Assembly: GCA_030704615.1 (NCBI GenBank) | Contig: CM060734.1 | Location: 4,836,001 to 4,900,000 of the forward strand | Source: Takakia lepidozioides | Lineage: Eukaryota; Plantae; Bryophyta | Length of the DNA: 64,000 nucleotides | Direction of reading: 5' to 3' | Part shown: positions 6,245 through 61,544 of the stretch, piece after piece | How the letters are laid out: each line of letters opens with the position of its first letter | Position numbering within the stretch: position 1 is the stretch's first letter | Made by a program: the position numbers and the translations under genes | Notes under the pieces: generated by a model | What the model was told of the DNA's origin: nothing | The model's input: only the letters and a program-made list of their open reading frames with translations | Databases searched by the model: none

Positions 6245-6504
6245 TGGCAGTGGACATGACTGGAGGCAGCTAACAAGACATGGGAGGCCAAGCTCATAGG
6301 AGTCAATACATGAGATCCCAAGCTCAAGTTCACAGGTTGCAAGACGGCGACTAACGATGGGGCAACTCTTGCACCCGGCCTCTTGATCTATCGAGTTTGA
6401 GTGTAGTAGGGATAGTGGTGGAGGACTTAGTGAGGCTATGGTCACTATCACATCTTGTGGCTACCTGGACTTAGAGGGACCTAAGCACCAGCTAGGGGGG
6501 CGAT

Positions 6505-7207
6505 TGTGTGGACTAGTGACTGCCATAGTGGGCAGCGTAGTGGCAGCCTAGTGACTGACTAGTTGTAGCCTAGTGGTTGGACTAGTGGCTGGACTAGTGG
6601 ACTAGTGGTATACTAGTGTGTGGTGTGCATGTGTTGTGTGGTTTTGGACAGCGATGTAGTTGTGTGTAGCGATATGTATGCGCACGACAGCTGTCAAGTT
6701 ATTTTACCACTAGTGTGAAACTAGCTAGGAAATAGCTAGCTTTTACATATTGACATTTGGGATTGGCCCAAGTGTCAATCCAGGGGTCAAGGCAGATTTA
6801 GGCCCTGGAGTGGTTATCTTCACGGCAAGCGTGGGAGGCTCATCTTTCTCGAGTTGAGCCTCACCGCGCCTAGCTATGGCGCCGTAGTGTGGATTCCCCA
6901 TGGCGTGGGGTGCACTTGGCTTGACTTGTATTTGAGTGATGAGGTTATATATGCATGAGTTTATGCTTCAGCTTTGTGAGCTCGCATGAGCTTGTGCTTG
7001 TATTCTTCTTCTTTATCATTGTGTGGACTAGTGACTGCCATAGTGGGCAGCGTAGTGGCAGCCTAGTGACTGACTAGTTGTAGCCTAGTGGTTGGACTAG
7101 TGGCTGGACTAGTGGTATACTAGTGGTATACTAGTGTGTGGTGTGCACATGTGTTGTGTGGTTTTGGACAGCGATGTAGTTGTGTAGCGATATGTATGCG
7201 CACGACA
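6505..7207 (+). repeat. 3' terminal B-A-B structure of A1 (B 6505-6689, GC, A 6692-7018, T, B 7020-7207)
   Basis: Direct repeat TGTGTGGACTAG...GCACGACA on both sides of TGTCAAG...TTATCA. B contains tandem GGACTAGT-type units. Confidence 0.9.
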
Positions 7208-10200: not shown

Positions 10201-10574
10201 TGCCGACAAGTTGGGCCGCCCAGGACGTTGAGGAACCGGCAGTAGCGGCGGTACTGGAAAAACGCGAGCGTTTGTTGAAGCTCACAAAGTACAACATTGC
10301 CAAAGCTAGGAAACGGTATGAAAGGCAGGCGAATCGGAAGCGGAGGGAAGTGAAGTTTGAGGCAGGCACAGAGGTCTGGTTGAACATCAAGAATTTCCGA
10401 CTACCTCCGGAAGTGAGTCCAAAGTTCGTGCCTCCGTATGCGGGACCCTTTCGCATTCGGAAGGTTATGAATGAGGATGTGTATGAATTGGAGCTGCCGG
10501 CAAACAGCAAGGTGCACCCAGTATTCCAGGTCTCCCTTTTGAAGCCTTACTTCAAAGATGAAGCGCGTCCGAAT
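7208..10574 (+). mobile_element. Chromovirus copy C1, body (end of gag, PR, RT, RNase H, integrase), degenerate
   Basis: [49 protein letters not shown]. Colinear with C2 at 23552-26924. Breaks at 10574. Confidence 0.92.
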
Positions 10575-11119
10575 ACCTATCCACCAGCTAGGGGGGCGAT
10601 TGTGGCAGACTACTTTATTGTGTGGTGTGGTTTGGACAGCGATGTAGTTATGTAGCGATACGTATGCGCACGACAGCTGTCAAGTTAAATAAGCACAGTG
10701 TGAAAACAACTAGAATAAAGCTAGTTATTTGTATTTAACACTTGGATTTAGGTCAAGTGTTAAATCAGGTGTCAAGTTTAGTTTGACACCTGAACCGCCT
10801 TATCTTCACGAGAGCGGCAGTCGCGCAGCTCATCTCTCTCGAGTTGAGCGTGCGCAACCGAGCTCCTGCATTGTTTAGGACTGAGTGTGCTTATGATGGG
10901 AGTATAGGTTGTTGTGGGGTGGAGTCCCCATAGCTTGGGGTGCCCTTGGCTCGACTTCTGTTTTAACGAGTGATAGCGATGGATTTCATGTTGTTTCTGG
11001 TGTGAATAGTGTGTCTCTTAGCTTGTTCTATCATTGTGGCAGACTACTTTATTGTGCATATATGTGTGGTGTGGTTTGGACAACGATGTAGTTATGTAGC
11101 GATACGTATGCGCACGACA
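10575..11119 (+). repeat. Displaced 3' end of Family A copy A4: PPT plus B (10601-10675), GC, A (10678-11033), T, B (11035-11119)
   Basis: Near-identical to the A5 3' terminus (reverse complement of 49648-50200). Continues the A4 3'UTR that stops at 17314. Confidence 0.88.
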
Positions 11120-11374
11120 CCGAGAATGGCTAAGTCCCAGATCTGACTGGGCCTCTTAGGCCAACTGTGAATTTATATGGTCCCGTGAACAAAACCCGCT
11201 CACACTTGACGTGGCATAAGGTTAAGGTGGCTCTTTTGACGGATTATATGACGGCAGTTTTGACTGGCCATTACAACTAGTAGTTTGACCAAGTAATACG
11301 GAACTTAATACACCACTTTACCACCGTGTCTGCCATATGTATGTCAAAGGGAATGCCACGAGGGATGAGCAGTG

Positions 11375-21826: not shown

Positions 21827-22552
21827 TGTCGCGGCCCTTTGCCTTGAGGGCAAGGGGGTCGGGACACATGAGGGGTTGCCCCTGTGGTGGGGGCAGCGGC
21901 AGCGATAGGTATGGGGGGCTGAAGCACCCTTGAGTGCCCAAGGCACCCAAGGAGGCGGAGGCGCTCACTAGGTGGAGCCCCGCACACCGGGTGGCGGTGG
22001 GGTGGCTCCACAAGGGGTGTGGTAGCTTAGCGGGACTTAGTGGGGGTGGCATAGGACTCACCATGGGGCGGAGACCTCGTGGTGGGAGTCGTGGGGAGTC
22101 TTGGGACTCATCACGGTCCATAGGGGCCGTAGTGAGTGGGCCAAGACTCACCGCGACTCATCACCGGGAGTCGAGGGTTTTTGTGGTGGTTCGCCATAAA
22201 ATGGCATGGCTGGTTGTAAAACCCCCGCGGACAGCTACAGAAGTATATATAAGGGGAGTAGTGACCCCGAGAACGGTGCAAGCCCGTTGGTGACCAAAAA
22301 CTTGTGAGTAAGCGAGCGAGCCGGAAAGCGACCAAAGAGTAGGGAGCTGTTCCGGACTGCCATCTACCAAAGGGAATTCTCCTAGTCCCAAATAGGTGGA
22401 GGGTTTAGTGGGAAGCGAAGGGGGACCGTTATGTCCCGGTGAGCAGCCGAAGCTCCAAGTTGGCCCGGGCGGCCAGGTTGGGAGTCAGGCGCGCGCATCA
22501 AAGCGAGTAACTATGACTTGAAGGGGAGCTTATCGAAGTGAGGTGCGCGACA
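21827..22552 (+). repeat. 5' LTR of C2
   Basis: TGTCGCGG...GCGCGACA, near-identical to 28067-28796. TATATATAA box near 22244. Confidence 0.95.
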
Positions 22553-22554
22553 CT

Positions 22555-22566
22555 TGGTATCAGAGC
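22555..22566 (+). promoter_or_regulatory. Primer binding site complementary to initiator tRNA-Met
   Basis: TGGTATCAGAGC, 2 nt after the LTR. Confidence 0.92.
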
Positions 22567-22607
22567 TTAGAGTTCAGTACGCGATCGTCCTTGGGATTGG
22601 CCTCATC

Positions 22608-25600: not shown

Positions 25601-27161
25601 CTTTGGCGGTGTTCGACGTGGATATCCAGTACAAACCGGGACGAGACAACGTGGTGGCCGATGCTTTAAGTAGAAAGCAGCAGCTCTTGTTGGTGTACAA
25701 GGGCGAGACGGCGCTCCAAAGGAAGATCCGAAAGGCTTGCCGGAAGGATGAGCTGGCGAAGTCCGTGATGCAGGACTTGAGGATGGGGGTTAAATCGCAG
25801 TTCCACTTGCAAATGGACTGCTCCGGTATAAGCAAAAACGTCTCTACGTGCCGAAGGGAGGGATCAGAGATAGTCTCTTGAGAGAATGCCATGATAGCCC
25901 GCTTGCGGGCCACGGCGGAGCCAAGCGCACTGCGGCACTCTTGAAGAAAGAGTATTTCTGGCCCAAACTCAGGGAGGAGGCAGAGGAGTATGTCAAGACA
26001 TGCACCACATGCCAACAAAACCGGAGCGAGTACAAAAAGCAAGCGGGGCTGTTACAGCCCTTGCCGATTCCAGAGGGGACTTGGGAAAGCGTCTCGATGG
26101 ATTTCATGACTGCTATGCCGCTGTCAAAAGGATTCGATGCAATCATGGTGGTGGTGGATAGGTTCAGTAAAATGGGCCATTTCATTCCCACCAAGGAGAC
26201 GGCAACGGCGCAGGAAACAGGGCGACTTTACTTCGCCCACGTCTTAAAGCATCATGGAGTCCCGAAGGATATTGTCTCGGACCGCGATCCAAAGTTTACG
26301 AGTAAATTTTGGAGGGCACTTTGGAAGAAGATGGGGACGAGGCTGAAGATGAGCACCGCCTTCCGACCTACGACCGACGGCCAAACAGAAAGGGTGAATT
26401 CCGTAGTGAAGCAGATCTTGCGGAATTACGTGTCGGCAGACCAAACAGACTGGGTGGAACACTTAGACTCGGCAGAGTTCTGTTATAATAACACAGAACA
26501 CTCCGCAACGGGAGTTTCCCCTTTCGTATTGGTCTATGGAAAAGCACCTCTAGTGCCGACAAGTTGGGCCGCCCAGGACGTTGAGGAATCGGCAGTAGCG
26601 GCGGTACTGGAAGAACGCGAGCGTTTGTTGAAGCTCGCAAAGTACAATATTGAAGCTAGGAAACGGTATGAAAGGTAGGCGAATCGGAAGCGGAGGGAAG
26701 TGAAGTTTGAGGCAGGCACAGAGGTCTGGTTGAACATCAAGAATTTCCGACTACCTCCGGAAGTGAGTCCAAAGTTCGTACCTCCGTATGCGGGACCCTT
26801 TCGCATTCGGAAGGTTATGAATGAGGATGTGTAGGAATTGGAGCTGCCGGCAAACAGTAAGGTGCACCCAGTATTCCCTGTATCCCTTTTGAAGCCTTAC
26901 TTCAAAGATGAAGCGCGTCCGAATCGGCATCAAGTGTTGCGTCCACCACCTATGCTGTTGGATCATGAAAATGAACCTGAGTACGAGGTGGAGGCAATAC
27001 TTAAGTCGAGGAGGTTCAGGAACCGAGAAACGGAGTATCTCGTCAAATGGAAGGGCTATCATCATGTGGAGGCATCTTGGGTGCGTGCCTCAGAAATGGG
27101 AAACGCATCCGAGACGGTTGCAGCTTTCGAAGGGCGACCTCAAAAGCGGAAGAAGCGTTGA
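22608..27161 (+). pseudogene. Gag-Pol-chromodomain polyprotein of C2, with frameshifts and stops
   Basis: ORFs 22554..23618 (retrotransposon gag), 23625..24098 (PR), 24077..24808 and 24802..25881 (RT/RH), 25848..26678 (INT), 26838..27161 (chromodomain). Confidence 0.92.
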
Positions 27162-28066
27162 TGGGGACATCAACCTTGGAGCGTGGGGGAGGAAATGCAT
27201 GCTTAGCCCGGCTTAGCTAGCTCAGGAATCCAATTACAAAAACTTGTATTGTACAAAATTTGCTTTAAATGAAATGTTTCAAAATGTTGTGTTTCCTATT
27301 TTTGTTTGGAATGGCGATGCATGGTATGGTTGGCTAGTGTGTAGAAGGCATGCTAGCTTACAAAAGCGGGAGAGGTAAATTGGGTTAATCGTGTGTTTGC
27401 GCAGTGCCGAAATCGGGTGACTCCCATCCAAGGGGCAAGGAAACTTGCGCCTTCTTTGGGAGTTCACGTGCTAGTGCGCACCTGGCGCGTGCGCGTACTA
27501 TAACTGCGCTACCAAGGGGGTTGCCTTGTAGTGCAGGCTAACGCGGAAGCTACGTGCTTCCGTTCACGTACAATAATCGTGTAGCCTCGGGACGAAGTCG
27601 TAGTGCGGCTTCGGCGTGTTCCCGTACCTCAGGCCAGCATTCCAAGGCGGACCCAATTGTAGAGATTGGGGCGCACGGTTGGTTCAAGGTTATCTTCCTA
27701 GTCAAAGAGGGTTCCAGGTGAACCCTTGCTCAAGGTGATGCCAAAAGCGGCATCATGAGCGATCGCAAGCAATGTTGTTGCAGTAAGGCGATTCGATCCT
27801 CGGGGAGGATCGTTCCTTGGCCTTGAAGTAGGCCAAGAAGAGTGCACTGGGAGGAGCTGGAGAGGCTCCACCCTTGGCCGGGACTTGGAGGAAGTCGGCC
27901 GAACTAGCTAGTGGAGAGTAGAGTCAAGTGTGGGGTTTGGTTCTTTGCCATGGGACGCCATGGTACGGAAACAAACTCCTTGATGTGGGACGCCACAACT
28001 TGGATGTTTGTTTCTACAAAATGAACAAGTCGATGAGGACATCGACTCCCTGTTGGTAGGGGTGTG

Positions 28067-40772: not shown

Positions 40773-43521
40773 ATGGTGGTGCCACATAGACTAGCGCAGG
40801 GCCGTGTCCTGTGGCGTGCTCTGTCCTTGTTCTTCCTCTTCTCCACTGCAGGTAATGTCGTCTCAACGGATTTGTTCCATCCCCATTTCTTCTCAATAAA
40901 TCGACCGTCATGAAGGCAGCTGGGCTCAAGCATAGCGTTAAACGTCATTGGATCACGAACATTAGTAGTGCTACTGCTGTGGAGGTTGATGTAGCATGTA
41001 GTAATGATCTCACAGTTCTGAGTGTGGAATCAGACTCCTAGCGGGGCCTGCAGAGAGCTATAGACTTCACATAATCTTCTCTTGACAGCTGACTCCCATC
41101 CCAGAATCGTGTTCTGACAAAAGCCACCGAGGTATTGACTAGCAAAAAATTCAAACTTTAAACCCAATTCTGGGTCTCTCGCGTTGATCAGAAGTCTTCG
41201 ATTGCCCTTGATGAGTGGTCGGATAGAACAGGCATTCCGTTTCCCATAACGCCAGTCAGAGAAAGATTTATCGTTAAGGCTGCAAGCATTTGTGGTCAGC
41301 TCGGCATCTGCAGCTTCATTCAGATCTCAGAGAACTCCTTGGTTTCCAAGTTTGCCACCACAGATTCTGTAGCATTTGACTGACTGCAAGGTGCTGGCAC
41401 GCAGGAGCCTTCGTCGGACTAAACTATGGAACCAACGGCGATAATCTGCCAACACCGCAGCAGGCGGTTCAGCTGCTGAAGAAACAGAGTATATCGTATG
41501 TGCGCATCTACGACACAAATGCCACAGTGCTACAGGCCTTTCAAGGTTCAAACATCCAGCTCGTAGTGGGGGTGCTCAACGACGAGGTGTTGAGCCTGGG
41601 AGAGAGCAATGCATCCGCCTCAACATGGGTAAAGAACAACATTGTGCCCTTTGCATCGACTTGCAACATCACCGCCATTGCCGTTGGCAATGAGGTCCTC
41701 ACTGGTGACTCATCGCTTGCACTGCTGCTACTCCCTGCCATGAACTTCATTCACTCAGGGCTGGTGGCCAATGGCTTGGATGGGCAGATCAAAGTGTCCA
41801 CCCCCTGCGCAGTGGAGCTTCTCAGCAACACCTACCCTCCCTCCAGTGGAGCCTTCAACAGCACATATGCTATGACTGTAATTCGACCAATGCTGGACTT
41901 CTTGTCAGAAACAGGGTCTTTCTTCATGCTCAATTCATACCCCTTCAAAGCCTATGAGCAGAACTCACAGGTCATATCCCTTCAGTATGCACTATTCGAG
42001 CCCAATGCAGGTGTTGTGGATTCAGCCACTGGGTTCCTCTACACCAACGTGTTTGATGCTATTTTGGATGCTGTCTACACTGCCATTGCTGCACTCAATC
42101 ACTCAGATGTCACAGTTGTTGTCAGTGAGACTGGGTGGCCGACACAGGGGGATACTAATGAGGTTGGAGTGTCAGCTTCAAATGCCCAAACCTACAATTC
42201 CAATCTCATCAAGCATGTGCTTAACAAGACTGGGACTCCTGCCAGACCTGGCATTGTGATTGACACATTTCTTTATGAACTTTTCAATGAGGATAAGGAC
42301 GTAGGCCCCACCTCGCAGCGGAACTATGGTGTCTTCAATGCCGATCTGTCTGCAGTTTATGCACTTGACCTAACTGGAACTGGCATTTCAGATGTAGGCA
42401 TCAATTCAACAACCAGCAGAACTTGGTGTGTTGCAATACAGGTCAGCTTTTCACTTTCTGGGAGAATTTAAGAAATCTGCAAAAACACATGTTGAGTCGC
42501 TGCTCAAGCAATTTTGATGAGCAGTTTGTGAACAAAATTGTATTCAAGCAGGAATGTGACGTAAATATTAGTCTTCCCTCACGAGCTATGTGTTTCAATA
42601 TTGATACTCACATGGTGCGTTTGCTTGATAAGAGTTGGAACAGGGGGCCAGTGATAGTATGTTGCAAGCTGCTTTGGATTATGCCTGTGGTCGGGCCAAC
42701 TGTTCAGCCATACAATCAAATGGAACATGTTACTTACCCAACACGAGGACTTCCCATGCATCATATGCAATGAACAGCTATTACCAAAGTAACGGTGCTG
42801 CCCAGGGGACCTGTGATTTCCAAAACACCGCCACACTTGCAACAACTGATCCAAGTAAGTACTCCTACCCTATGAAGCTGGTAGTCCACATGAATCCCAG
42901 GAGAGCCCCAACATAAGAAAATAGCTCAGCCCACATTTTGATGAAACCAGAAGCACTTGGGGGTGCAAAGAATTATCCTCAGTGGCGAATTGGTCTGTGT
43001 GACAGAATCCTAGAGGTGCATTGGAAGTAGGGAAGATGAAATTCTGCTACTGTGCAACTCTGGAAGCTTCTTTGGGAAAAGTTTTCTGGATCTTTGGTCC
43101 TAAAGGCAAAAAGAAGGTCGCATTTTTTTCTAACCAAATATGTTGTGCACGATGAATGGCATGTGCAGGCTATGGGACGTGTATTTATCCAGGGAGGTAC
43201 AGATCCTTCCCTCACTTGGAGCTATGTTTGCATTTCTTCTTGCCACTTCCATGCTTGGGACTGTACATTGAAAACTTGCATCAGTTGCATCTGCACCATC
43301 ATCAATAGGATTTGGTTCTGTTCAGGAGCACACCTGACAAGTCTGCAATTTCTCTTGACAGTTTTGTGGTGGTGTTGGATGTGCAGCACACCCCTAGCAA
43401 CTCAATATAGTTTTGGAGAAATGTTGATTCCTCTTCATCCTCTGACAAATCTTGCCTTCTCAGCACTGGGGACACTGCTTGTGCTGAACCTGCGGCACTA
43501 GGCCAAGGCTTCTGTGTATAG
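40773..43521 (+). CDS. Glucan endo-1,3-beta-glucosidase (GH17) with signal peptide and X8/CBM43 domain. Exons about 40773-40851, 41405-42441, 42644-42854, 43169-43196; last exon uncertain (43464-43521 or 43326-43410)
   Basis: VGLNYGTNGDNLP, VRIYD, IAVGNE, VVSETGWP, YELFNED; X8 WCVA..LQAALDYACG..HASYAMNSYYQ..CDF..DPSYGTCIYP. GT-AG junctions keep the frame. Confidence 0.9.
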
Positions 43522-44374: not shown

Positions 44375-47300
44375 CTACCGGTTCGTGGGAACATATGGGG
44401 AGCCTGGCACGTCAGGTAAAGGACAGCCATCATTCTCCTGTTCAGGGACAGTAACAGGTTTGAAGATGGACTGCTGAGGTGTCATTCCAGAGCTGGGCTC
44501 TAGATCAGCATCCATGGCTGTCACATGGTAGTCATGACTGCCATCATTAGCATGCTCTGTCTCCAGTGCTGCCTCTCCCTTGTCCTCCAGCAGGACACCA
44601 TCATCCCCCTTCGGGCTTATCAACCTCTCCCGGTAGTCACGCATCTCTATCTTGTACCTCTCCTTGTCTTTCACGCCTCGATCTTGATAAGGCTGCATAA
44701 ACCCCATTACTTTCTCATAACACATACTGAAAAAGACCAGAGTATTCCTTCCTCATACCACTACGTGGGTGGCAGGAGAGATTTTCAGGCAAGCTGAAAA
44801 ATCAAGATCAGTACCAAACTGGGCTGACAACTCACTAAGACCAAAGGCAGATCTTGGAAAAACTGAAGGCACATGGTACTCACAGATTTCTCTTCCTCAG
44901 AAAGACCGTTCCAGGCATTGCCTATCATACGACTTAGCTCTTTGTCTTTCTCAGGGTGCAGTGCTTTCAGCTTGGTGCGTTGCTCAGCGAAGAAGAAGTT
45001 GTAGCCTGTTCGGTTAGGCCGTGGTGCGTTGGGGTCCTTCTTTGGCATGTCTTCTTTTCGTCGTCGCTTCCGTCGAGCCCGTGCCTCTATTCCCGGGAGT
45101 TGCAGCTCTGCACCAATAGTTCCTGCATAATTTGGCACACTGGCGTGCTGCAAAGCTCGTTGACCTGGTGGAACATGATATAACACCCCCCTCAACTTCT
45201 CGGTGCCCACCATGACCGCAACAAGGTAGCCATGCTCAAACTTGCCTTCAATTGCGCCCGTTACCACATGCCCAATTGATGCAGCTGGATCTACTGCACA
45301 TACCGTCGACAGTATGCACCAATGAATCTACTGAAAGATTGAACAATATCATGACTAGGGCCAAGATGTGACACCTCCTTCATTTCATTGCCCTAGGAAA
45401 AATGCAATGTTGGTAGCTAAACCTCTGAACATAAGAAAGCCTGCATCATTGCATCCTCTACAGGCTCATTTACTGTGGAAGGAGAGAAACCAAAACATCA
45501 AAGTGGAAAGGCCTTTAAAAACCTGGCAGTATTTGAATCGGGGTATTCTTCCTCTTCCTTGTCTTGTCACCAGAGACTGCTTCCAAGATTGGGTATGGTG
45601 GAAGTGCCTGATCACTTGTCTTGATAATGACAGGACTTGGTGCAGGCAATGGAACTGCCAACCAAAAAAAAATGTGAGGGTTCTTTTGGAGACCCTGCTT
45701 AAGAGAACTTTTGAAGTGCCCACCCATCATTTAGGCAATGGGGGTTCCAGGATCCTTGAAAAACTTTAGATTGCATGCTGAAAGAACCTATAAGCAGACA
45801 GAGTCTGATACTTCTCGATACATGCTGCACTTGAGATCTGACATTCCCACCATTTGGTACAGGCTTAAGGACACCTACCAGTGCGATTCTTGGCAAGTGT
45901 AAAATACAATGAAGAGTGTGTCCATTGTAAAAGGAGTGGAACAGCCAGAGTTTGTCAAGCACAGCCACATACTTGGAGGTGGTATCAGAGTGCCTGTTGC
46001 TCCAAAGAAGTAGGCTTGCTCGTAGTGATGGAGAAGGGCAATGTAGTATTTGCGCAATACATACGAGGCACTGGTTGTAGTACGTGGGAAGTTGAACACC
46101 CCCGTGATCTCCTTCCATTTTCTGTCCTTTATAACCTGCTTTCCCTTGCACTCGGAGATTGTGTTAGAATGACACTATTGGTTGACAAGTCAATGTACTC
46201 ATCCAACCCATCTGTAATGTTCTTCTGACTCTCAGCTCAGACCCCAAAGATGTAAGAAAAGTAAAAACTTCGACAGGTTCATGCAAAGACATTGATCAGA
46301 ATATGCAGGGCCTCCATAGACAACCTTCACAGATGAGCCAAGTAGGAGTTCAGAGCCAAAACAGAAGATTGAGAACCAGAGCCTCTGCCACTCCACTGCT
46401 TGAGGGAACATGTCAAAGATAATAACACAAATGAGAACAACCGATGAAGAAGCAGATTTGCATTGTACACCCTTTTTGAGATCTTTTAGCAGTTCGTCTA
46501 CCTTTCGAAAACCACGCAATTCCCCAAGTAGCAATAGCATGCAGCATCGAGTGAGCTAGTTATGCCAGATAATTAAATTCGTGGCTTTTTTAAACATTCG
46601 AGCACGAGTCATGCAGTAGCCTTCTGAAGGAGAGGAGAAAAAGAGAGAACACCTGCTGAAGACCACCACGTGCAGTGACTTCAACATAGAGCACATGTAA
46701 GTCAAGGTCTTTGCCCCCCATCTTTGGAATTCTGCACACCATGCAACCCATTAAAACAGGTGAGGGAAATTGTCACAGCCTGCTGCACATGACAGCCAGA
46801 AAAAATAGTCAGATAAGTTGACGAGATGCCCAAGTGGGGCAGCTGGCTTGCACGGTTCACTCTGTGAAAACGCTTCGTGGCTGATCTAGCAAAAATCTTA
46901 CATGAATCCGAAATAAGTTGCAAGATTGTCAACAATAACTTCAATATCTTCACATCATTCAACATGAAAGTTTTGTGAACTGGATGTTACCTCAAAGATG
47001 GCCAGATTAACTAAAGACAAGAATTTCCTGGATTATCATGAAGATTACCAAGATAAATGCAACCAAGCTACTTGTGATATCTGCCTTTCACACCACAAGT
47101 GTAACAACAGATTGCTAAGATTGTTGTGATGAAACATCACCTTTGTTCAGATTTACAAGTTGTAGTTGAAATGTAGTTTTCATGAAGAATCTACTTCATT
47201 ATCTTTTCTTCTATTAGAAACAGCACCCACTGGATACTGAAGGGGATTTACATTGAAGAATGATGATCAGTTACTGTTGGCTGAATAACTGTAAGAAAGG

Positions 47301-48666: not shown

Positions 48667-49647
48667 TCGGCCTGCCTATCAAACCCTCAGAGCGTCAACC
48701 ACAATCAAAATCGAAATAATCAAGTGAGACTCACACCAGGACTCAGGAACTCAGAAAGCCTCCACTCTCCAAGAACACCGCGCTTGAGAACTCCTGGAAA
48801 CTGAACCTCCGCAGCAGAGAAGACAAAAGTTCGGTGAACGAAGAATCAGCAGGAGTACCGTGAGAGAAAAATATGAAGAACGGGATACACATCTAGTGCG
48901 AGACTGTATAAGGGCCGCTTTACACTAGGGCCCCAGTGTAAAGCGGCCCTAACAAAGCTCAAAACTTGGGAACGCGAAAACGAGAGAGAAAACCAAGCTC
49001 CTACCACGTGGCGCTCCGTGACAGGGTTATCCCCTGTACATAACTTCACTTTTCGTACTCTAGCCTGGAGATCTGGGTCTTGGCCAATGAGAGGCCTGAG
49101 TAACGGGAGGGCCAAGGGAACCAACGGTGTCTCGTGAATCGTGCGGCCTCGTGCGGCTTGCTCACCGGTTACACCCAGTCACTGACTCCCGGTCACCCAG
49201 GGAAACGGTCCAGTCTACGGCAGCAGCCAGTACACATTGTCGGACCCTCCCAACCCTTGAGCCCCAAAGACCTTTGAGCCCGAAAGACTCCCTGTATATA
49301 GTACTACGCACATGAGGGGGCGGGCAGGGCTGGAGCTGCCCTGTGGACCCAGCGGATGTTGGGGCGGATATCCGCCGTGACCACGCACATATGGGCGGAT
49401 GAAATCCCACAAATGATCCGTTGGGTGAACTTGGGCAAGAATTCACCGTAGCCAACTCGGTCCTCTCTCTCCTCTCGACGGCACACGCGCCAGTACTCCT
49501 AGTAGTGAAAATACCACATGAGGGTAGCATAAACTTGGTTCCTTGCAAAAAAATAGAGATTGGCAAGGTCATTTTGATATGGATGCTTATGTCTATGAGC
49601 TTAGGGAATTGTATGATAGTCAAATCAAAGGCGAGACTTATTTTGGG

Positions 49648-50177
49648 TGTCGTGCGCATACATATCGCTACACAACTACATCGCTGTCCAAACCACACCA
49701 CACATATATGCACAATAAAGTAGTCTGCCACAATAGATAGAACAAGCTAAGAGACACACTGCTCACACCAGAAACAACATGAATCCATCGTTATCACTCT
49801 TTAAAACAGAAGTCGAGCCAGGGGCACCCCAAGCTGTGGGGACTCCACCCCACAACAACCTACACTCCCATCATAAGCACACTCAAATCTAAACGCATGA
49901 AGGAGCTCGATCGTGCAGGCTCAACTCGAGAGAGATGAGCTACGCGACTGCCGCTCTCGTGAAGATAAGTCGGTTCAGGTGTCAAACTAAACTTGACACC
50001 TGATTTAATACTTGACCTAAATCCAAGTGTTAAATACAAATAACTAGCTTTATTCTAGTTGTTTTCACACTGTGCTTATTTAACTTGACAGCTGTCGTGC
50101 GCATACATATCGCTACACAACTACATCGCTATCCAAACCACACCACACATATATGCACAATAAAGTAGTCTGCCACA
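49648..50177 (-). repeat. 3' terminal B-A-B structure of A5
   Basis: 85-bp B copies flank the 357-bp A. PPT TAGGGGGGCGAT at 50189-50178. Confidence 0.93.
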
Positions 50178-50437
50178 ATCGCCCCCCTAACTGGTGGATA
50201 GGTCCCTCTAACTCCAGATAGCTATAAGATGTAATAGCCACAGCCGTACTAAGTCCTCTATCACTGTCCCTATCGTGCTCAAACTCTATCAACCAAGAGG
50301 CCGGGTATAAGAGTAGCCCCATCGTTAGTCACCGTCTTGCAATCTGTGAACTTGAGCCAATATCTCGTGTGTTCAAGGTCTCTTAGTAGCTTGGCCTTGC
50401 ATTTCTTGTTAGCTTTCCATGGTTGTATCCACTCCCA

Positions 50438-53400
50438 TTATCCAATGCAATGTGGACATAACCAATCCCCATCCGGAACCATCTCAAGAGGTGGAGTCAA
50501 GCATCCCATATGCCAACCTCTAGAGCATCGATCACACACCAGCATGGTGGCTGCCCCTTTAGCAGACCCACACAACATGCACCTCAAACCTGCAGATACC
50601 ACTGCCAGGTTTGGGTCAATCCTGCCATCGACATTCGGAAGATGACATGGCGCACAATTACGCACATGGTCCTTCCAAGTTATGCCATCCCGACCCTCCA
50701 AGACCAAGACGCCTGAGGGCAAGACCTCTCGAACCCTCAAAATAACACGTCCTGCAGTCACATCCAGGGTCGTAGGAGCAGTCTGCTGCAAATAGACATA
50801 GTCACCAGGGTTGAATCTCCGAACCCCAGGACGATAGCCCCCACCACGTATGGTAGCATACCTCAACGTATCACGGTGTTGTGCAATGGCAAGGTTCTCG
50901 AAAGCCATGGGCATGACTCTCTTGAACAACTCCAGATCGTCAAGGTTAAGAACTGTAGCAGCTTCTCTGCAAATGGATATAGGCAAATCCGGCTCTCGGC
51001 CAAAGAGAAGAAAGTATGGTGAGAAGGAGGCAAGTGATGCTTGCTTGCTGAACCTGTAGCCCATGGCTAACCACGGTAACTGAAGGTCCCAATCTCCTAG
51101 GTGTCCCTTCTGCAAGCCATACTTGCGCAAACCCCTCTTTACTGTCTGAACAACTCTCTCTGCCAAGCCATCAGCCTCAGGATGATCCCGAGAAGTGGTG
51201 CGGTGGTCTATCAAGGCCTTGTCACACAAAGCCTGAAACTCCCCCAAGAACTCTCTCCCTTGGTCCGTGAGTACCTCAGCTGGAGCACCGAATTGGCTAA
51301 GCACACAATCCAAGAATGCATACGCAGCTCCCTCACTAGCCTTATCAGGCAATGGAACCAATTCAATCCACTTGGAGAAGTGCTCCACCATCACCAACAC
51401 GTACTTGTTGTGGCGCATGGTTAGTGGCAACGGCCCTGCGAAGTCAAGACTCCACCTGTAGCCCAATCCCATGATTGGAAGAGGGTGCAATTGTGGAGTA
51501 GGGGCGTTGAATGAAGCACGCACCCTGTCACACACCATGCACCTAGCCACAAATTGTTGCACCTCTGTGTGCATACCATGCCACCAATACTGTCCCTGCA
51601 GTAGGCTATGGGTGCGTCGCACCCCAAAATGCCCCAACTCCTCGTGGGCATGCCGCACTAACCGTGCCCGCTGTGTTGGGTGAGGCACAATCCTCACTCG
51701 ACCATCCTCCCACACTCGGAGCAGGTGTGTCCCCTCCCACTTGAACCTCTTGGCTCGTTGTAGGATCCGATCCCTCTCCTTGGCAGTCATAGTGGCTGCA
51801 GTGTCTCCAGTGCGGAGGTAGTCCAACACAACTGAATCCTCATGTATATCTTTGGCGCCACCTTGTTCATTGCTGGCCTCAGGGTCCTCAGACACTTGAT
51901 CTACAGTCATCCCTATTGCAGGTCCAACCTGGCCTTCCGCTGCCACAATACACAGAAATGCAGATGCATGCCATCCGGGCACCATCTCCTCGTCCGTCTC
52001 ACCATGCCACCGAGCTCCAGTGTCATCCTGCTGGCTCGTGCATGGATTGCGACTCAACCCATCTGCATTGCGATTGATCAAACCCGGTCGATGCACCACC
52101 TGAAAGTCATACTCTTGAAGGATGAGTGCCACCGTGCAAGCTTCCCCGTAAGCTTGTCTGACTCCATCAACCACTTGAGTGGTTGGTGATCCGTGACAAG
52201 GGTGAAGAGATTGCCGTATAGATAACACCTGAAGTGTGCCACGGCCCACACTGCAGCTAAGCATTCACCCTCATATGAGCTATACTTAGACTCTGCAGCA
52301 TTGTTCGAGCGGCTAGCATAAGCCACTACGAACTCTCTCCCTCATCATCCACCTGTGTGAGCACCGCTCCAAGCCCCAGCATGCTCCAATCTGTATGTAG
52401 CTGAAAAGGACGCCCCCTGATAGGTCGTCTCAAGATGGGCGCCGAGGTCAACCTCGCCTTGAGCTCTTGAAAAGCTTGTTCTTGCTCATCTTCCTACTGC
52501 CACTCCTGGTCCACCTTGGTCAGCTTGGTTAGAGCCTTTGCAATGGCACTGAATCCCTTAACAAACCGTCTGTAATAGTTTACTAACCCCATGAAAGCTC
52601 GAACTCGGCTTACATCCGTGGGGCGTGGAACCTGTGCAATGGACTCTACCTTAGTCTGCTGTACCCCCAATCCTCCAGGATATATCATGTGACCCAGATA
52701 CTCAATCTGGTTGTGGAAAAACTTGCACTTTCCCGGATGTAACTTCAATCCGTGCGCCCTCAAGCCCTCAAATACCCCCTGAAGGTGTCTCTCATGCTCC
52801 TCCACCGTAGCACTAAAGATGATGATGTCATCTATGTAGCACCGAGCAAACTCCACCCCTGCTAGAATCCTGTCCATGACTCTTTGAAACTCAGCGGGAG
52901 CGTTTTTAAGCCCAAATGGTAAGAACCGCCACTGGTATAGGCAATCCTTCCCGTGCTCATTGATCCCCCAGAATGTCGTCTTTTGCTTATCCGCCTCCTT
53001 GATCGGCAACTGGTGATATCCGGATCGTAAATCCAACGTGCTAAAGACCTTGGAATGCCCAATGGCATCAAAGATCTCCTCTGGTGTCGGCATGGCATAC
53101 CTATCGGACTTGGTCTGACGATTTACAGGCCGGTAATCACCGCACATACGTCTCTCCGTCCAATTGCCATAGACATCCTTCTTAGCTGGCATCACTGTGG
53201 CTGAAGCATACTCTCCACCAGAGAGCTCCACCAAACCTACCTCCCAGAGATCTTGAGTCCTCATCTGAATCAAAGACCTCTCCATGTCACTGTATCTATA
53301 GGGTCTCCGAAAGATTGGCGTGTCAGTGGCCAACTCAATACGGATCTCTTGACCCTTCAGTGCTCCCAAGTCCTTCAAACTGAAGGCAAAGCAATTCCTG

Positions 53401-53537
53401 TAAGCCCTCAGGAACCGCCGTATACGTCGTCTCTCTCCTCCGGTGACAATGGGTCCAATGTCAGGCTCCCAATTGTCCTCCGTAACTGCAACCTTAAGTC
53501 CAGTGGGCTTAGAGGTAGAAAACGCGTCCCGTGGTTG
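50438..53537 (-). pseudogene. RT-RNase H-integrase-PHD of A5
   Basis: ORFs 52494..53378 (RT, CYIDD), 52078..52326 (RH), 50438..52264 (INT plus C4HC3 PHD). A few stops and frameshifts. Confidence 0.93.
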
Positions 53538-53829
53538 CTATGCTGCAACCTCTTGAGCAGTACTCCCTTCGTGCTCAGTCAATGACAAGGCCTCATCCTG
53601 CCCCATCATCTCATCATTGAGAACCTCCTCAACCTGAGAAGAATCCCACACCTCATCTATCACAGCTGTCTTGGCTGCCAACTCCCTCTGGACCTCGAGC
53701 ACCTCCCACGTGTGCCATGGATGTCTACACCCCGTGGTCCTCACCGTCTCGCCCCCACTCGCTGCCTGTACCGTCTCGGTAGGCAGAGAGACCGTCAAGG
53801 TAAGTGCACTCCGCACTCTACGTTGCTCA

Positions 53830-54790
53830 GCCATAGCCAAGCTGATAATCCAGGTCAAACAATTGAGATCCATTGCTTGCCCCAACACTTGACGCCGTGA
53901 TGCCTCAGAAAGAGAAGGCACCGCCGTGGTCCCAGTGGAAAACCCCATAGCCCGCTCTCGCTCGTCGGCATTAGGCTCCACTAACTGCTGCAACTGAGCA
54001 TCCCACAGGAGGCCAGGTCCACCATCCCGAAAAGCATGGGATCCTGAGAAGCTGAGCAGTGTAGGTAATGCTGCTCGTGGTTGACCCACCCTGTTGACCA
54101 CTGCCAAAGGCGAACGGTCATCGTGTCTCACACGTTGAGACTGCCTCCCTGTGTCCAAAATGACATCCATGGTGAGGTGTGCTGGCCGCTGCACCCCATC
54201 AAATGCACGCTTGAGCAGTGCGGGTGGCATCAAGTTAGTCCACCAAAGCCGTGGACGATGAGCCCGTGACCCCACTGCAGCTGCATCCAGCAACACTGCT
54301 GACCCAAGCCACGACCGGATTTGATGCACACTGGCCATCACCTTGGCCCGAGAATCACCCATCAGTGGCACATTCTCCAAGATGTATGCTGGCGATACAG
54401 CTTGGTGAAGCTGCAAGTGGCGCAAAATCCGCACCATCTCCCAAAACAGACCCGTCCTCGAGTCTCGCAATCCATTGCCATGCCCGGCTGATGAATGTCA
54501 TTGGCAGGGCCAACCTGCCACTACCAGATCAATGGAGCCAACCTGCTCCAAATCCGGCGCCCCCAGCAACGAAATGTCTGCTGGCAAGGCTTGTTGGTAT
54601 CCACGAACTGCAGACACTGGCAACAAAGCAGGGTACTGTTGTACCAACTGAGCAACATGGCACAGTGAGACGCGTCATGCAGTCTCATCCCTCTCCACAT
54701 ACAGGTAACGTCGAACTTGTACACTTGCCTGTAGCACAACACCCAATCCGGTGCTGATCCCGCCAAACAAGTCCAGAAGGCAAATGCCTT
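53830..54790 (-). pseudogene. DNMT3-like C5 methyltransferase domain of A5
   Basis: In one frame with the protease: LLDLFGGI..YVERDETA*..DLVVAGWPCQ*HS..GLFWEMVRIL..YILENV..RAHRPRLWWTN..ERERAMGF..LGQAMD. Two copy-specific stops. Confidence 0.92.
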
Positions 54791-57740
54791 CATCCGGATA
54801 CTGCCACACAATAGGTGTGGTATCCAATGGTGACAACTGAGGTGGTCCTGGTGCAGTACCCGCACTCTCCTCCTCTCCTGATGGTACAAAAGCCTCTACC
54901 CAGGCTTGTTGCACCCGTCGATCAGCAACCTGCTGCAAATCCTTGCTCGTACCCCACAATGGAGTGTGAGCAACCATGGCAGGCAACTCCGCCATACCAT
55001 GCATGTCATCCTGCTCTGCTGGAGGTGGCACATCCTTTGCATGGGCATTGCCCTCCAGCAACTCTCCAGGCCAACTAACTGCAGCTGTAAAGGCGGCTAG
55101 TGTTGGCATCTTGCCTCGCTGGGCAGCCGCTATACCCCCAATGAATGTTACAGGGAGCTGTGCACGGCGACCATCGCCTGACTGCCATCCAGGCCTGTAG
55201 GATGCTGACTCCTCCCAAAAGTCCAGGGTGAAGCCCATGGGGTATAACACTGCCCCACCAACGAGGACATCGTAAGAGACTGCGTCTGTCACAATGGCCT
55301 TGGCTCGCATTACTGAGCCATCGATAGGATGATCCGGCTGCAGTCTAATGGCCAACTGATGTCATGTCATGCCCCGAGCCTGCTCTGATCCTCCCAGAGA
55401 TGTCTGTATCTGGAAAGGACAAGGCTCCATATCCGCCTCCATGAGGCCCAAACCTGCAATAGCAGCTCTGCCCAACATCAGTGGCTGAGCTCCCGAGTCC
55501 AACAAGACCCGCAGTGGCCGGTACTTCTTGCCTGCCGGTCCACTCAAAGTGAAAATGCCTCCCTGGTTGTCTAGCAAGACAACTCCAGGTGTCACCATGG
55601 CGCGCTCAAAGGCTGGCCTAGCTGGCAGCTCCGTCAACGTGGCAGCTGCAGCTTGCCAGGGCGCAGCCGTGGCAGTCTTGACCCTCAAGTCCGAGGATCC
55701 ATCTGCCACTACACCTTCCACTAACTCCGTAGAAGATGAAGTGACCTCCCCACTCTCACAGAGTGTTGCTGCTAGTCTGAACACTGCAGCTGGCCTTACC
55801 CCCGACATCGCAATCATGGTTGCCGAGAACAGTGGGGCTTGACACACAGAGGTGGCTGCCCCCAATAACACACCGGCTGCACTAGCCTTGGTAGCAGGTG
55901 TCAGTGCTGCACGTGTAGCTCTCCCCAATGGCATAGTAACCTCCGCCTCGGTAACAGTCGGGCGAGAACTAGGTGCCATGGATGGCGTCGACACAGTCTC
56001 CGCCAACGTGAATGACTGAGGAAGCCTCGCCTGACGGCTTGCCTCCCCACGCTGTGGATCCAATTCCACCTCTGCACCTCGTGGCTCAGGAACTCGTGCT
56101 GCTCCTCGAGTCACGGCTGCAGCAGACTCCACCTGCTCTAGTGGTAGTGCTGCTCCGCACATGAATCCCATGCCTCCCATATCTCCTCCCTCAGGAGCAG
56201 GAGGTGGACCATCCCGCCTGGGAGCCGGTACCGCCTGAGCTATAGCCATGGCAGTGAGCCTCTGCTCTAGCTGCTGAAGCCGATTGGCCATGTCTTGGTC
56301 AACACCCTGACCTCCGCGTCCTTGGCCATGTGGAGCTTGCCCTTGGCCTGCACCTCGTGCCCGACCACCTCGTCCTCTTTGGGCTGGTCCACCTCGCCCC
56401 CGGCCACCATTGTTCCCTTGGAACTGGCCTGGGCGCAACTCAAGATGCAAGTCATAACACTGGGCATCTCCATGCCCATACTTGTCACAATGCCCACACT
56501 GCAACTGTGCAGGCTGTGCTTGTGCCGGCCTTTTGCCACTCTCTGGGCAATCTCTCTTGACATGGGGTCATCCACATGTCCAATATATCACCCCTGGTTG
56601 CTGTTGGCCTGCAAAAGATGCCACGGGCCTCTGCACCTGAGGTCCCCTGTAAGCTCCATGGAACTTGGGCTGGGCAACCTTGCCCCCCTGACCACGCTGT
56701 TGGGCAGTCCCTTGTGCTTGTGGGCTGACAGCTGTGCCCCGTGCAGGCATGTCCTTACCAAATCCAATTGTAACAACTCGCTCCTCCACCATGTTGAGCT
56801 CAATCCACTCAGCCAGCAGAAACACATCTACTAATGTGGGTTGGGCTGCTTGTAACAGGGTTGCATCTCGCACCCTTCTCTTGAGCTCCTTGTCCAGAAT
56901 TCCATACCAAAACTGGATTGCCTGAGCTTCAGTAACCCCTTGGGTCACACTTATCAAGCGCCTCATACGAGTGTACGCCTCTCGTAGGCTCTCACTGGGT
57001 TTGCGCTGGAAGTCTTGCAAACTTCGCAGCTTCTCTGTCCGTACACCTTGGTAGTTCCTCCGCAACTCCTGGAAGAACTCCACCACCGGGTTGAATCTAG
57101 GCACATGTGTTGTAGTCGTGGCAGGAGGAGTAGTAGCACCTTTTGAACTGGTACCACTTGCAGAAGTACCAGCACTACTTGCTCCACTACTAGTGCTGGC
57201 AGTGGGAGCTATTGGTACTGATGCAGCTATTGGTCGCGTCGTGCCTCGAGTAATGGAGACGTAGTCAGGTGACCAATACATCCTCCACTCATCAATCTCT
57301 ACTTCATGTCCTCGCCTGAACTCGTGGTAATCGTCCATAGGCGGGCCTTCCAAATGCTGGAACAGTCCCTTCCACGCCATGAATGGGGTGAATAGCTGTG
57401 GATTGCGCATCTACTGCAAATCACACCAGCTGTCAAACTCCTGGATAAAGTCATCCAACTCGATTGTGCCCACAGCTCCATAGTACCTACGAGGCCCCTT
57501 GATAGCTCCATACATCTCCTCCATGTCGTCCCACAACAATGGCGAATGAAAGTGCACACCTGTTGATGAAGCCTCCGAGTCTGTGTCTGACTCTACAGTA
57601 ATTGAGGGTGGCGGTGAAGGTGGTCTGAACCGAATACCTCGTCTTGTGAACCCACTCTCACTGTTACTGCCTGTAGCCGTACTCCCCTCAAAACCCTTGG
57701 GTAACTCCGTAATGACACTCACAATGTGCACCTCCTCCAC
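54791..57740 (-). pseudogene. Gag and protease of A5
   Basis: ORFs 57411..57740, 56568..57410, 55362..56504, 54675..55355. Zinc knuckles and LLDSGAQPL. Confidence 0.9.
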
Positions 57741-58259: not shown

Positions 58260-59009
58260 CTATGCTATCAACTGCCAGACTTCTCTCAAAGTGCCTCGCT
58301 CTGCATGATGGTAAGGTATAGGAGGTATATCTATGTCCAGAAACCTGCCACTAACCTTGTCCCAAGCTACAGTAGCTCGCTCTAACCAACCCTCCTCCTC
58401 TGTCTGCCAGGTAGAGACAAAGCAATACTCCCCTATCTCCCGCTCACTAAACACTAAAGAAAACAAAGGTAGGGTCTGATAGTCTCTCAACTCAAAAGCT
58501 TTGAGACGGTTGCGGGTGTCCTCATTGCGAATGATTGCATCTCCTTCAAACAGAACAAACTTGTCCTCGCTAATGAACCCCCACTCGTGGTTGCCTTGTG
58601 CAGAGCGTGTCCGGCTGCAACGTTGTCTGATTGCACAAACTTGTGTAGCTCCTGCTCCTCTACTCCAGTACACCACGGCCTTGTGGCTGAACACCTTGGT
58701 CCCCGGGGCTGTCTTTGGCTGTGTTCCAAGCCTAGCTTTCACCCACTTTGGTATTTCACCTACAGCTGCAGAACTGCTGGCTCCAATAGAGTTCTGACTG
58801 TCCAAAGCGATATTGAGGCCCTCAATGCCAACTATAGCAGTCTGTTGTCCACTGCTAATGCCTGACTCCCAGTATGCAATCAACTCGTCCAACTGTTCTC
58901 CACTCAAATCAGTCTGAGTTCCTTGGGAAACATAAATCTTGCCCCCTTGTGTGCACAGGCTAAGAGACGAGACCTGCCCTTCAATTACGTCCTCATTTCC
59001 CCCAGCCAT
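58260..59009 (-). CDS. Intact 249-aa extra ORF of unknown function in the A5 leader, sense to gag
   Basis: ATG-initiated, uninterrupted, globular-looking composition. No family recognised. Confidence 0.5.
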   Translation of the reverse strand: MAGGNEDVIEGQVSSLSLCTQGGKIYVSQGTQTDLSGEQLDELIAYWESGISSGQQTAIVGIEGLNIALDSQNSIGASSSAAVGEIPKWVKARLGTQPKTAPGTKVFSHKAVVYWSRGAGATQVCAIRQRCSRTRSAQGNHEWGFISEDKFVLFEGDAIIRNEDTRNRLKAFELRDYQTLPLFSLVFSEREIGEYCFVSTWQTEEEGWLERATVAWDKVSGRFLDIDIPPIPYHHAERGTLREVWQLIA

Positions 59010-61092
59010 ACAAGGAGGACATCCACAGATTTGTCTATCATATAGACCAGAACAGGTTCTAGAAACAGAATTGTGGATCGTTCATGGCACACTCACACTC
59101 TAAAAATTCCATAGATTTTTAGCAGAGTCCCAAAAACAAAAACCTAGATTGGTAGATTTCCCCTTTCTGCAGCTATCCCCTCAAAAACTGAGTCAAACGG
59201 AGTCCATTTGACAAAGATATGACCAATTAGGCTCTAAATCATTTGAATTAGATCAAAAAGGCCTTTTTTTTTTTTTTTAACACCAAAACGTTCTCGCCAT
59301 TAAAAACTGCTCCCAAGTCACCTACGAGTTCCCAACACGTCCAGGTAGTTCGTCCAAGTAGGGGCGATTTCAAGAGCAAGTCAAGAGATGCACTGCGCAA
59401 CACCTTCATGGCTTATGGACAGGCGGCCTGCAATCGAAAGATTCGTGGATGGTTGCTGGACTTGCACAACACATCTGCCACATCGGAACCACAGCTTCAC
59501 TTCACCAACATTCAGCACAACAGGAGCAGAGCAGAGCATACAAGAGCTTGGCCGTTGATTGCGACACCTGCTGTGTGAGAAGTTTGAGAATTGAGCTGCT
59601 TTTTTGATGTCTGTGGTTCTACTGTGGTGTTGTACGTGTGCTCCTTGGACCTGTTGGACCTCCCGCAGACGTGATAACTTTCTTTTCTTCTTATCCCTGA
59701 ACCCTCCTGAGGTCCTATACATTCTTGATTTTGGCCATTTTGGAAGGAGGCCATTGGCCTTTCTTCCTTAACTTGCGCTTGCGCACCAGCCTCTTCCTTC
59801 GAAGCTCCAATCGTTTAGCCTTCTTCTTTAACAATTATGCTTCTGACTTGAGGGAAACTATGGCTGGGATGGTGACCTCAGGAACAATCTCGACCTCTGA
59901 CTCTGGGGCATCTCCAGCAGCCCTGGCTACCACATTCCTCTCCGTTGTGGCCTTCCACGTCAAGGACGCACCGGCTGCGACCTGCCCACTGTAATCTCCA
60001 AGTTCTTTTCTATACTTCAAACCCACTCTAAATCCAGAAAACAGCCCGCAAGCAGGTCTCCACTGCGAGCTTGCCGAGGCAGCAGATGGTGAGAGAGACA
60101 AGGACACATTGGAGAAGGTCGGCACAAGGGCCTGGGAAAGAAGGAACGCCAAAGGTTGTAGAGTTCTCTGGTACGCCAAAGCCAAGTTCTGAAGGCGGGA
60201 TTCCCCCTGTTGCCCAGGCTGGGCACAAGCTGGGCATTTACGGAAACCCCTCCGAGAAGCAGATGAGGCTCTCGGCAGATTGCCCTGCAGGTTTGCTTGT
60301 AAATCAGTCTTGTTAGCCAGCGATTGTAGGGCCTGCACGTGAAGCTCCGGGAACATCAATTAATCAACGATCTCCTCCAGCAAAATGGGAGTGTCACAGG
60401 TTGTCTTCCATCAACATTCACTACTTCATGTGCTTGGCTATTTGGGCCTGTTTTTTTTCCCGCCCTAACTTGCTTAAACGCTCCAGTGTGTGCTCTTGTA
60501 CCCGAGCCCTTCTTAGCTCGCAGTGTCCTTCACAGAGCCGTCCTCATCGACAACTGTCCATATTGCTTTAACAAGGTATGGATGTGTCACCATTGGACTG
60601 ACCAGGTACAGCAAGGCTGCAGAACAATCTGCCTCTCGCAGTGCTCCTGTACAGTTGCAGTTATAGCGACGCACCGAGTGCCCAACTTGCAATAGTAATG
60701 CAACCGTAAGCGCTTGTTCCCCTGTCACAACCACACTCTTGCATGCACGCTGCACACAGGCTTCCACCTCCGGAGAAGAAGTCCAGGGACAGAGTTGCGG
60801 TTGTCAGCAGCTACCAACAGACACAGTCTTCCTTACATTTGCGCATCATCATGCTGCTCCACCATGATATCTCCTCACTGACCAAAACAAAGGCTGCTTC
60901 CATGCAGTGTAGCTCCGTCCTGCCCGGCGGCCTTATGCCAGAACCAACACTGATCGAAACCTGCATATTTTGTTTTTTTTTTTTTTTTTAAAAGCTTCTT
61001 AAACTAAGCACTACTCTCACACAGGTAATCATACAAGTGCTAACCCTCAACTCCTACCTTGCACTCACAGGTAAGAGATCATCTCTCTCGAG

Positions 61093-61448
61093 TGATAGAA
61101 CAAGCTAAGAGACACACTGCTCACACCAGAAACAACATGAATCCATCGCTATCACTCTTTAAAACAGAAGTCAAGCCAGGGGCACCCCAAGCTATGGGGA
61201 CTCCACCCCACAACAACCTACACTCCCATCATAAGCACACTCAAATCTAAACGCATGAAGGAGCTCGGTCGCGCAGGCTCAACTCGATAGAGATGAGCTA
61301 CGCGACTGCCGCTCTCGTGAAGATAAGGCGGTTCAGGTGTCAAACTAAACTTGACACCTGATTTAACACTTGACCTAAATCCAAGTGTTAAATACAAATA
61401 ACTAGCTTTATTCTAGTTGTTTTCACACTGTGCTTATTTAACTTGACA
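61093..61448 (-). repeat. 5' terminal repeat A of A5 (no B)
   Basis: TGTCAAG...CTATCA directly abutting the TSD. Copy at 49734-50090. Confidence 0.93.
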
Positions 61449-61544
61449 TGGGAGAGAAGGAGTAGTCACTATCGGTACTTGCCAATTTTGGCATAACTTC
61501 TTGTGGTCTTATTCGATTGCTGTGAAAAACATCCCAGACATGGA

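Follow-up and report, generated by a model that had tools for sequence, protein, structure and literature searches.

The A5 element and its neighbours

The window, i.e. the whole stretch of 64,000 nucleotides of the Takakia lepidozioides genome analysed here (contig CM060734.1, positions 4,836,001 to 4,900,000), contains several retroelements with host genes between the repeats. The latter were recognised by Pfam as a glycosyl hydrolase family 17 frame (41380-42471, plus strand) and an HMG-box frame (44785-45327, minus strand). A chromodomain Gypsy element (21827-27200) was used as internal control. Further to the left, in the region 7210-11127, the internal region of a chromovirus ends before its chromodomain at 10574 and runs directly into the polypurine tract and the B-A-B end of the A family; the region is either chimeric or the result of a deletion that brought two unrelated elements together. 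The element under study, A5, spans 61448-49648 on the minus strand and is flanked on both ends by CCCA. Its main features are listed below, all on the minus strand.

61449..61452, minus: target-site duplication CCCA, left copy
61093..61448, minus: repeat A1, 356 nt, left end of the element, TGTCA...TCA, with 9 differences from A2
50438..57500, minus: gag-pol (approximate start), interrupted by stops and frameshifts
50179..50188, minus: polypurine tract AGGGGGGCGA
50093..50178, minus: repeat B1 (start of U3)
50086..50099, minus: internal att-like junction CACGACA-GC-TGTCA between B1 and A2, with the palindromic core GACAGCTGTC
49735..50090, minus: repeat A2
49648..49733, minus: repeat B2, right end of the element
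49644..49647, minus: target-site duplication CCCA, right copy

The end layout of A5 is A...polypurine tract-B-A-B. Since the polypurine tract abuts B and A borders on the primer-binding site (PBS), the working LTR is B+A. The order of domains in gag-pol is Gag, a protease-like motif (identified by eye), DNMT, reverse transcriptase (RT), RNase H, integrase and PHD finger. Pfam analysis recovered Gag, a C5-methyltransferase (PF00145, E 5e-5, matched on a broken piece), RT and integrase; at the C-terminus it recognised a PHD finger (PF00628, E 3e-10), whereas no chromodomain was detected in A5. The RNase H motifs are present and split by one stop and one frameshift, and the methyltransferase region has a homologue in all 15 relative loci compared. 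With its broken pol, A5 would depend on proteins provided in trans for any movement. An open frame of 273 codons (58263-59081, minus strand) in the element's long 5' region gave neither a Pfam match nor a tblastn match in 15 relative loci.

From its C5-methyltransferase domain, repeat layout and RT grouping, A5 is a Gypsy-DNMT3/PHD retrotransposon like the streptophyte element KnitGypsy-Dnmt3, which is described with a DIRS-type repeat arrangement and Gypsy domains (Fig. 4 legend, PMC5890265). Both have a C5-methyltransferase in a Gypsy Pol and DIRS-like repeats, in A5 of the form A...B-A-B, and A5 has a DDE integrase. The accessible part of that paper (PMC5890265) does not treat PBS, priming, att site or target-site duplication. 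In the RT tree, which is unrooted, contains no Tf1 or Tcn1 reference and leaves out one short row (P0174), A5 belongs to a 26-row clade (100/99) that is separate from every chromodomain element sampled. The K. nitens proteins P0153 and P0183 fall into the same 100/99 clade and are possibly the published KnitGypsy-Dnmt3 copies. Among the named relatives of A5 are elements of liverworts, a moss, Klebsormidium, Closterium and chlorophytes; from this spread alone, a bryophyte would be the probable host.

The primer-binding site and its complement in repeat A

On the minus strand, repeat A terminates with ...TTCTATCA at 61093 and is followed without gap by CTCGAGAGAGATGA (61092-61079); no TGG adjoins the repeat at 61092. 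The reverse complement of this sequence, TCATCTCTCTCGAG, lies inside repeat A, perfect at 49938-49925 and with one mismatch (61288) at 61296-61283. Both observations had been made in the earlier note, which had claimed a non-TGG site right after the 5' repeat A and a complement within the repeat, and both were borne out. A third A copy, on the plus strand, carries a perfect complement at 10830. The corresponding features are the following:

61081..61092, minus: 12-nt core of the PBS, CTCGAGAGAGAT; complementarity continues to 61079
61283..61294, minus: predicted self-primer, RNA nt 1-12 with a putative +1 at A61294; private mismatch at 61288
49925..49938, minus: perfect PBS complement in A2, with its 12-nt core at 49936-49925
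10830..10843, plus: third copy of the motif, in a further B-A-B end of this family (10575-11127)
6842..6853, plus: primer motif of the sister subfamily, ATCTTTCTCGAG; its repeat A' ends at 7018

Public contigs showed the mismatch to be private to the 5' copy in the window, perfect complementarity being the state of the family. The plus-strand letter at 61288 is the pairing letter G in 12999 of 13080 depth units in run X1, in 601993 of 601997 in run X2 and in all 598 in run X5, i.e. in more than 99% of the depth in three runs. Three diverged contigs of X5 align to exactly 61079. Two diverged contigs of run X8 were also seen to span the PBS. Counted from the PBS start, the perfect complement is 14 nt long; for the 10,662 other starts in the internal region of the element, the longest was 10. 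The same maximum of 10 nt was reached in 20,000 dinucleotide shuffles of A. In the control chromovirus, a TGG-type PBS (TGGTATCAGAGC) is found at 22555, which we take to be of the tRNA-iMet type, and its own LTR offers a complement of only 5 nt.

A sister subfamily, of which the window holds the 3' end only (6503-7208), allowed a prediction that was stated before the result was obtained. From its motif ATCTTTCTCGAG, the PBS was predicted to read CTCGAGAAAGAT. The loose ends behind 7018 start with exactly these 12 letters in four of four public runs (15, 10, 2 and 9 contigs per run; three of the runs represent one sample, hence two studies). Compared with the window, a C-to-T change in the motif is thereby matched by a G-to-A change in the PBS. 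Letter 13 behind 7018 is G in some contigs and C in others, so that pairing is conserved only as far as the A of the motif and the primer is likely 12 nt long. In the motif, the block common to all families comprises 11-13 nt and starts in the window with the A at 61294, and for the two letters upstream (TC) pairing is lost in some sister-subfamily contigs. The primer length of about 14 nt given in the earlier note was accordingly amended: judging from these alignments, a primer of about 12 nt from 61294 is likely.

The relatives of A5 comprise one locus from genome contigs and, from the metagenome contigs scanned, the 80 best out of 561 confirmed hits. In 27 loci a PBS was found behind repeat A, and from these the duplicates L010, L013 and L067 (same genomic copy) were dropped. 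The remaining 24 loci together with the window gave five families: F1 (window), F2 (L001), F3 (L004), F4 (8 copies) and F5 (14 copies), whereby F2 and F3 are known from one contig each with collapsed repeats. No additional family emerged when the DNA upstream of pol was searched for stems de novo in 31 loci, nor were relatives found in the viral contigs searched. The alignment of primer and PBS was set by hand with the 3' G of the primer as anchor; MAFFT was in register for F1-F3 only. The representative pairs are given below.

F1, window (motif from the 3' copy): primer ATCTCTCTCGAG, PBS CTCGAGAGAGAT
F2, L001: primer ATCTTTGTCAAG, PBS CTTGACAAAGAT
F3, L004: primer ATTCTTGTCAAG, PBS CTTGACAAGAAT
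F4, L007: primer ATAGTTCTTTGAG, PBS CTCAAAGAACTAT
F5, L063: primer AGTTTTTCTAG, PBS CTAGAAAAACT

Each of the five families has its own version of the PBS, which complements the repeat of that family; the letters change and the pairing persists. With one well-preserved representative per family, all 55 primer/PBS cells are Watson-Crick pairs. Two or three types of pairs occur in 8 of the 11 columns with changes on both sides, which in related families do not amount to 8 independent events. Primer and PBS of the same element pair at 10-11 of 11 positions, while cross-family combinations pair at 4-9. The PBS starts with CTC, CTT or (T)CTA across the five families and never with TGG. The 253 cells of 22 old F4 and F5 copies comprise 207 pairs, 14 wobbles and 32 mismatches. 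The five double changes among them are all compensatory, with about three expected under independent decay (computed by hand); compensation at the level of single copies in F4 and F5 is thus not above chance.

Some loci deserve mention on their own. L001 is a complete Gypsy-DNMT3 element with open frames on a circular contig inside a cyanobacterial genome bin; most likely, eukaryotic DNA has contaminated this assembly. A 5' A was absent from several loci that extend far upstream.

Boundaries of the copied DNA and predicted start of the RNA

The A/B junction consists of the last base of A followed by the first base after the polypurine tract. It reads TCA/TTGTGG in the two plus-strand ends of the window, TTTCA/GTTGTGG in F4 and mostly CAAT/ATAC in F5; in A5 itself, the A2/B2 junction joins the two predicted cDNA ends with one extra T. 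This shows that minus-strand synthesis set out from the base adjoining the PBS. One end of the copied DNA coincides exactly with the PBS start, and the other lies just after the polypurine tract. From the junction CAAT/ATAC, the predicted primer of F5 has 12 nt, one base beyond the anchoring by hand. In L064 (12863-13796; identical to L060), repeat B is extended and takes in the polypurine tract, a layout which suggests plus-strand priming at an upstream site.

The internal B/A junction CACGACA-GC-TGTCA recurs in relatives from all families (50099-50086 in the window; L001:7048, L004:8653, L007:10344, L052:13144), and the integrated ends correspond to its two halves. Thirteen elements were found with both ends, of which ten show an exact 4-bp duplication and one a duplication with one mismatch, while two were unassignable. 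The forms A...B-A-B and A...B were both found, and B precedes none of the 21 5' ends with visible flank. A two-LTR circle opened at either internal junction would also yield A-B-A...B, to be compared with these 0/21. Solo A/B units, the product that recombination of A1 with A2 should leave behind, were observed in L070 (16846-17340) and L006 (5352-5819).

Transcription by RNA polymerase II usually starts about 30 nt after the TATA box. The first A of the primer block is located at position 30 from TATAGC in F2, from TATAAT in F3 and from TATAAA in F4 (a manual count in L007's 3' copy, the 5' copy having TATGAA at the TATA position), at position 33 from TATAAA in F5, and at position 32 from TATCTT in F1. 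The preceding letter is C in F1-F4 and T in F5. The window family is devoid of a canonical TATA box; at the TATA position it has the following non-canonical element:

61320..61326, minus: TTATCTT, common to the window and the sister subfamily

From the placement of TATA in the relatives, TTATCTT may act as the TATA-position element, and the transcription start is predicted at A61294.

When the RNA was folded from 61294, the primer:PBS helix was part of the minimum-energy structure (z -2.79). The mean probability of the primer:PBS pairs was 0.49 in the mismatched window copy and 0.82-0.99 in six relatives. In most elements, the minimum-energy folds contained no helix of the LTR with sequence 3' of the PBS, and the 'pretzel' of Tf1 was not evident. 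The predicted folds display a central primer helix with a short U5 pairing beside it: the U5 segment GAGTGATAG (61157-61149) can pair with 61098-61090, which covers the LTR end and the first three bases of the PBS. Similar GAGTG segments were seen by eye in the sister subfamily, F2 and F4. By its position, the U5 pairing of GAGTGATAG may be the equivalent of the flanking duplex of Tf1.

An inverted repeat was also noticed that encloses the predicted start with its upstream arm in U3 (61310-61277; L001:7226-7256; L004:8826-8853; L007:1833-1864), with perfect arms of 11-12 bp in L001 and L004. Addition of 40 nt of U3 reduced the pair probability of primer and PBS to 0 in F1-F3 in silico, while it stayed at 0.98 or more in F4 and F5. 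Masking of the 3' copy of the primer by a U3 hairpin was therefore rejected as a general rule.

Proposed priming by the element's own RNA and comparison with known systems

The features described above very probably reflect self-priming of A5 and its relatives. RNA polymerase II would start at A61294, and nt 1-12 of the RNA would fold back and pair with 61092-61081, presumably in cis, thereby enclosing a loop of about 190 nt. In Tf1, RNase H cleavage frees the 3' end of the primer; by analogy, the RNase H of the element would cut after nt 12 and leave a free 3'-OH. Primer cleavage is mentioned for Tj1 in a figure legend (PMC4600332). RT would then copy A back to +13, giving the strong-stop product, and jump to A2. 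Plus-strand priming would follow at the polypurine tract (50188-50179). The plus strand would finally copy the primer, so that the PBS would be reset to the LTR motif in every cycle, which would explain the covariation. The proposal of the earlier note that the element primes with its own RNA 5' end thus gains support from the covariation, the sister-subfamily prediction, the spacing from TATA and the A/B junction.

A primer of the element's own sequence does not have to be the 5' end of the same RNA molecule. The 5' end of another copy, a small RNA derived from the LTR or a 3' end cut in A2 could be used instead; any primer bearing the LTR motif predicts identical covariation, and cis and trans action are not separable by sequence alone. 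However, the block begins some 30 nt behind the TATA position in each of the five families, an indication of a 5' end, and an RNA both starting and ending at the motif would leave no R region for strand transfer. In F1-F3, the loss of primer:PBS pairing in silico in the presence of upstream U3 further disfavours the 3' copy, an argument that does not extend to F4 and F5. Taken together, a primer of this kind is considered improbable.

The remaining explanations give the LTR match another role. It would be a by-product if priming were achieved by a host tRNA half or another host small RNA, and priming by half-tRNAs is known in plant Copia lineages (PMC6317226). For comparison with the PBS, ARAGORN yielded 0 tRNA genes, both in the window and in 51 of 81 loci scanned. 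Against this explanation, six versions of the PBS each match their own LTR, two of them within one host. In addition, no PBS starts with TGG, and since the A/B junction fixes the cDNA end at which the primer was paired with CT or TC, an intact tRNA 3'-CCA cannot pair there. Host-derived priming is thus very unlikely. It is equally hard to believe that the helix is a conserved RNA structure involved in packaging, dimerisation or control of translation, with priming taking place elsewhere. Helices are common in 5' UTRs, and palindromes as in dimer signals are present at the PBS start in F1 (CTCGAG) and F5 (TCTAGA), but they are missing in F2-F4. Moreover, in the three families whose junction is visible, the 3' arm of the helix lies precisely at the end of the cDNA, and no TGG site adjoins A. 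Self-priming by the 5' end of the RNA is therefore retained as the preferred explanation.

Self-primed reverse transcription has been described for Tf1 and Tf2 of S. pombe, Tj1, Tosmo and the Tf1/sushi group (bioRxiv 10.1101/2022.12.06.519325; PMC4600332). In Tf1, the self-primer, located at the mRNA's 5' end, pairs with the PBS within a structure of three duplexes (bioRxiv 10.1101/2022.12.06.519325). Similarly to this group, the PBS of A5 abuts the LTR end and is complementary to a block at the predicted 5' end of the RNA, downstream of the TATA position, and in none of the five families does the PBS match a tRNA 3'-CCA end. Unlike Tf1, A5 carries a PHD finger in place of the chromodomain and a DNMT domain in Pol, and its ends are of the A...B-A-B or A...B type with a 4-bp duplication and without two ordinary full LTRs. 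The likeness to Tf1 put forward in the earlier note holds for the way of working. A5 is not filed in the Tf1/sushi group, given the missing chromodomain, the missing ordinary LTRs and, in the unrooted tree without Tf1 and Tcn1, the separate RT clade.

In plants, self-priming has been predicted from complementarity between PBS and LTR for Tcn1 (Gypsy) and TAR (Copia), Tcn1 being present in mosses and club-mosses (PMC6317226). Unlike A5, Tcn1 is a chromovirus with ordinary LTRs. The main text of that study contains no occurrence of 'PHD' or 'methyltransferase' (PMC6317226). Two further candidates were rejected: Troyka has ordinary LTRs, CG ends and 3-bp duplications and is restricted to animals (PMC12440569), and Phygy has an NCGN target preference, to be set against the duplications in the A5 family. 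The literature searched, which did not extend to Repbase and supplements, holds no report of priming in the Gypsy-DNMT3 clade; among its reports on self-priming, none deals with Klebsormidium or Marchantia, and Tcn1 is the only case in a bryophyte. Gypsy-DNMT3 is mentioned by name in just two of the publications searched.

The mechanism as such is already known, and the surprise is limited, Tf1 being an established case of self-priming and Tcn1 and TAR predicted ones; the lineage is without a report of self-priming in the literature searched. For a widespread clade of the green lineage, known only for its methyltransferase and DIRS-like repeats, the proposed priming would represent the first step of the replication cycle. 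The position of the RT apart from the sampled chromoviruses would indicate a further, or much older, origin of tRNA-free priming in Ty3/Gypsy elements. More tentatively, it is possible, and nearly as probable as its opposite, that self-priming of Gypsy-DNMT3/PHD elements arose independently of the Tf1/sushi chromoviruses, that raw cDNA ends are joined and the integrase uses the internal palindrome, that the A...B-A-B copies are fossils of the primer and polypurine-tract boundaries, and that in some families the 3' primer copy is masked by a hairpin of U3. Annotation tools requiring a tRNA-type PBS and two equal LTRs would miss such elements. The A/B junction constitutes a genomic record of both cDNA ends, from which the length (12-13 nt) and the start of the primer are predicted to the base.
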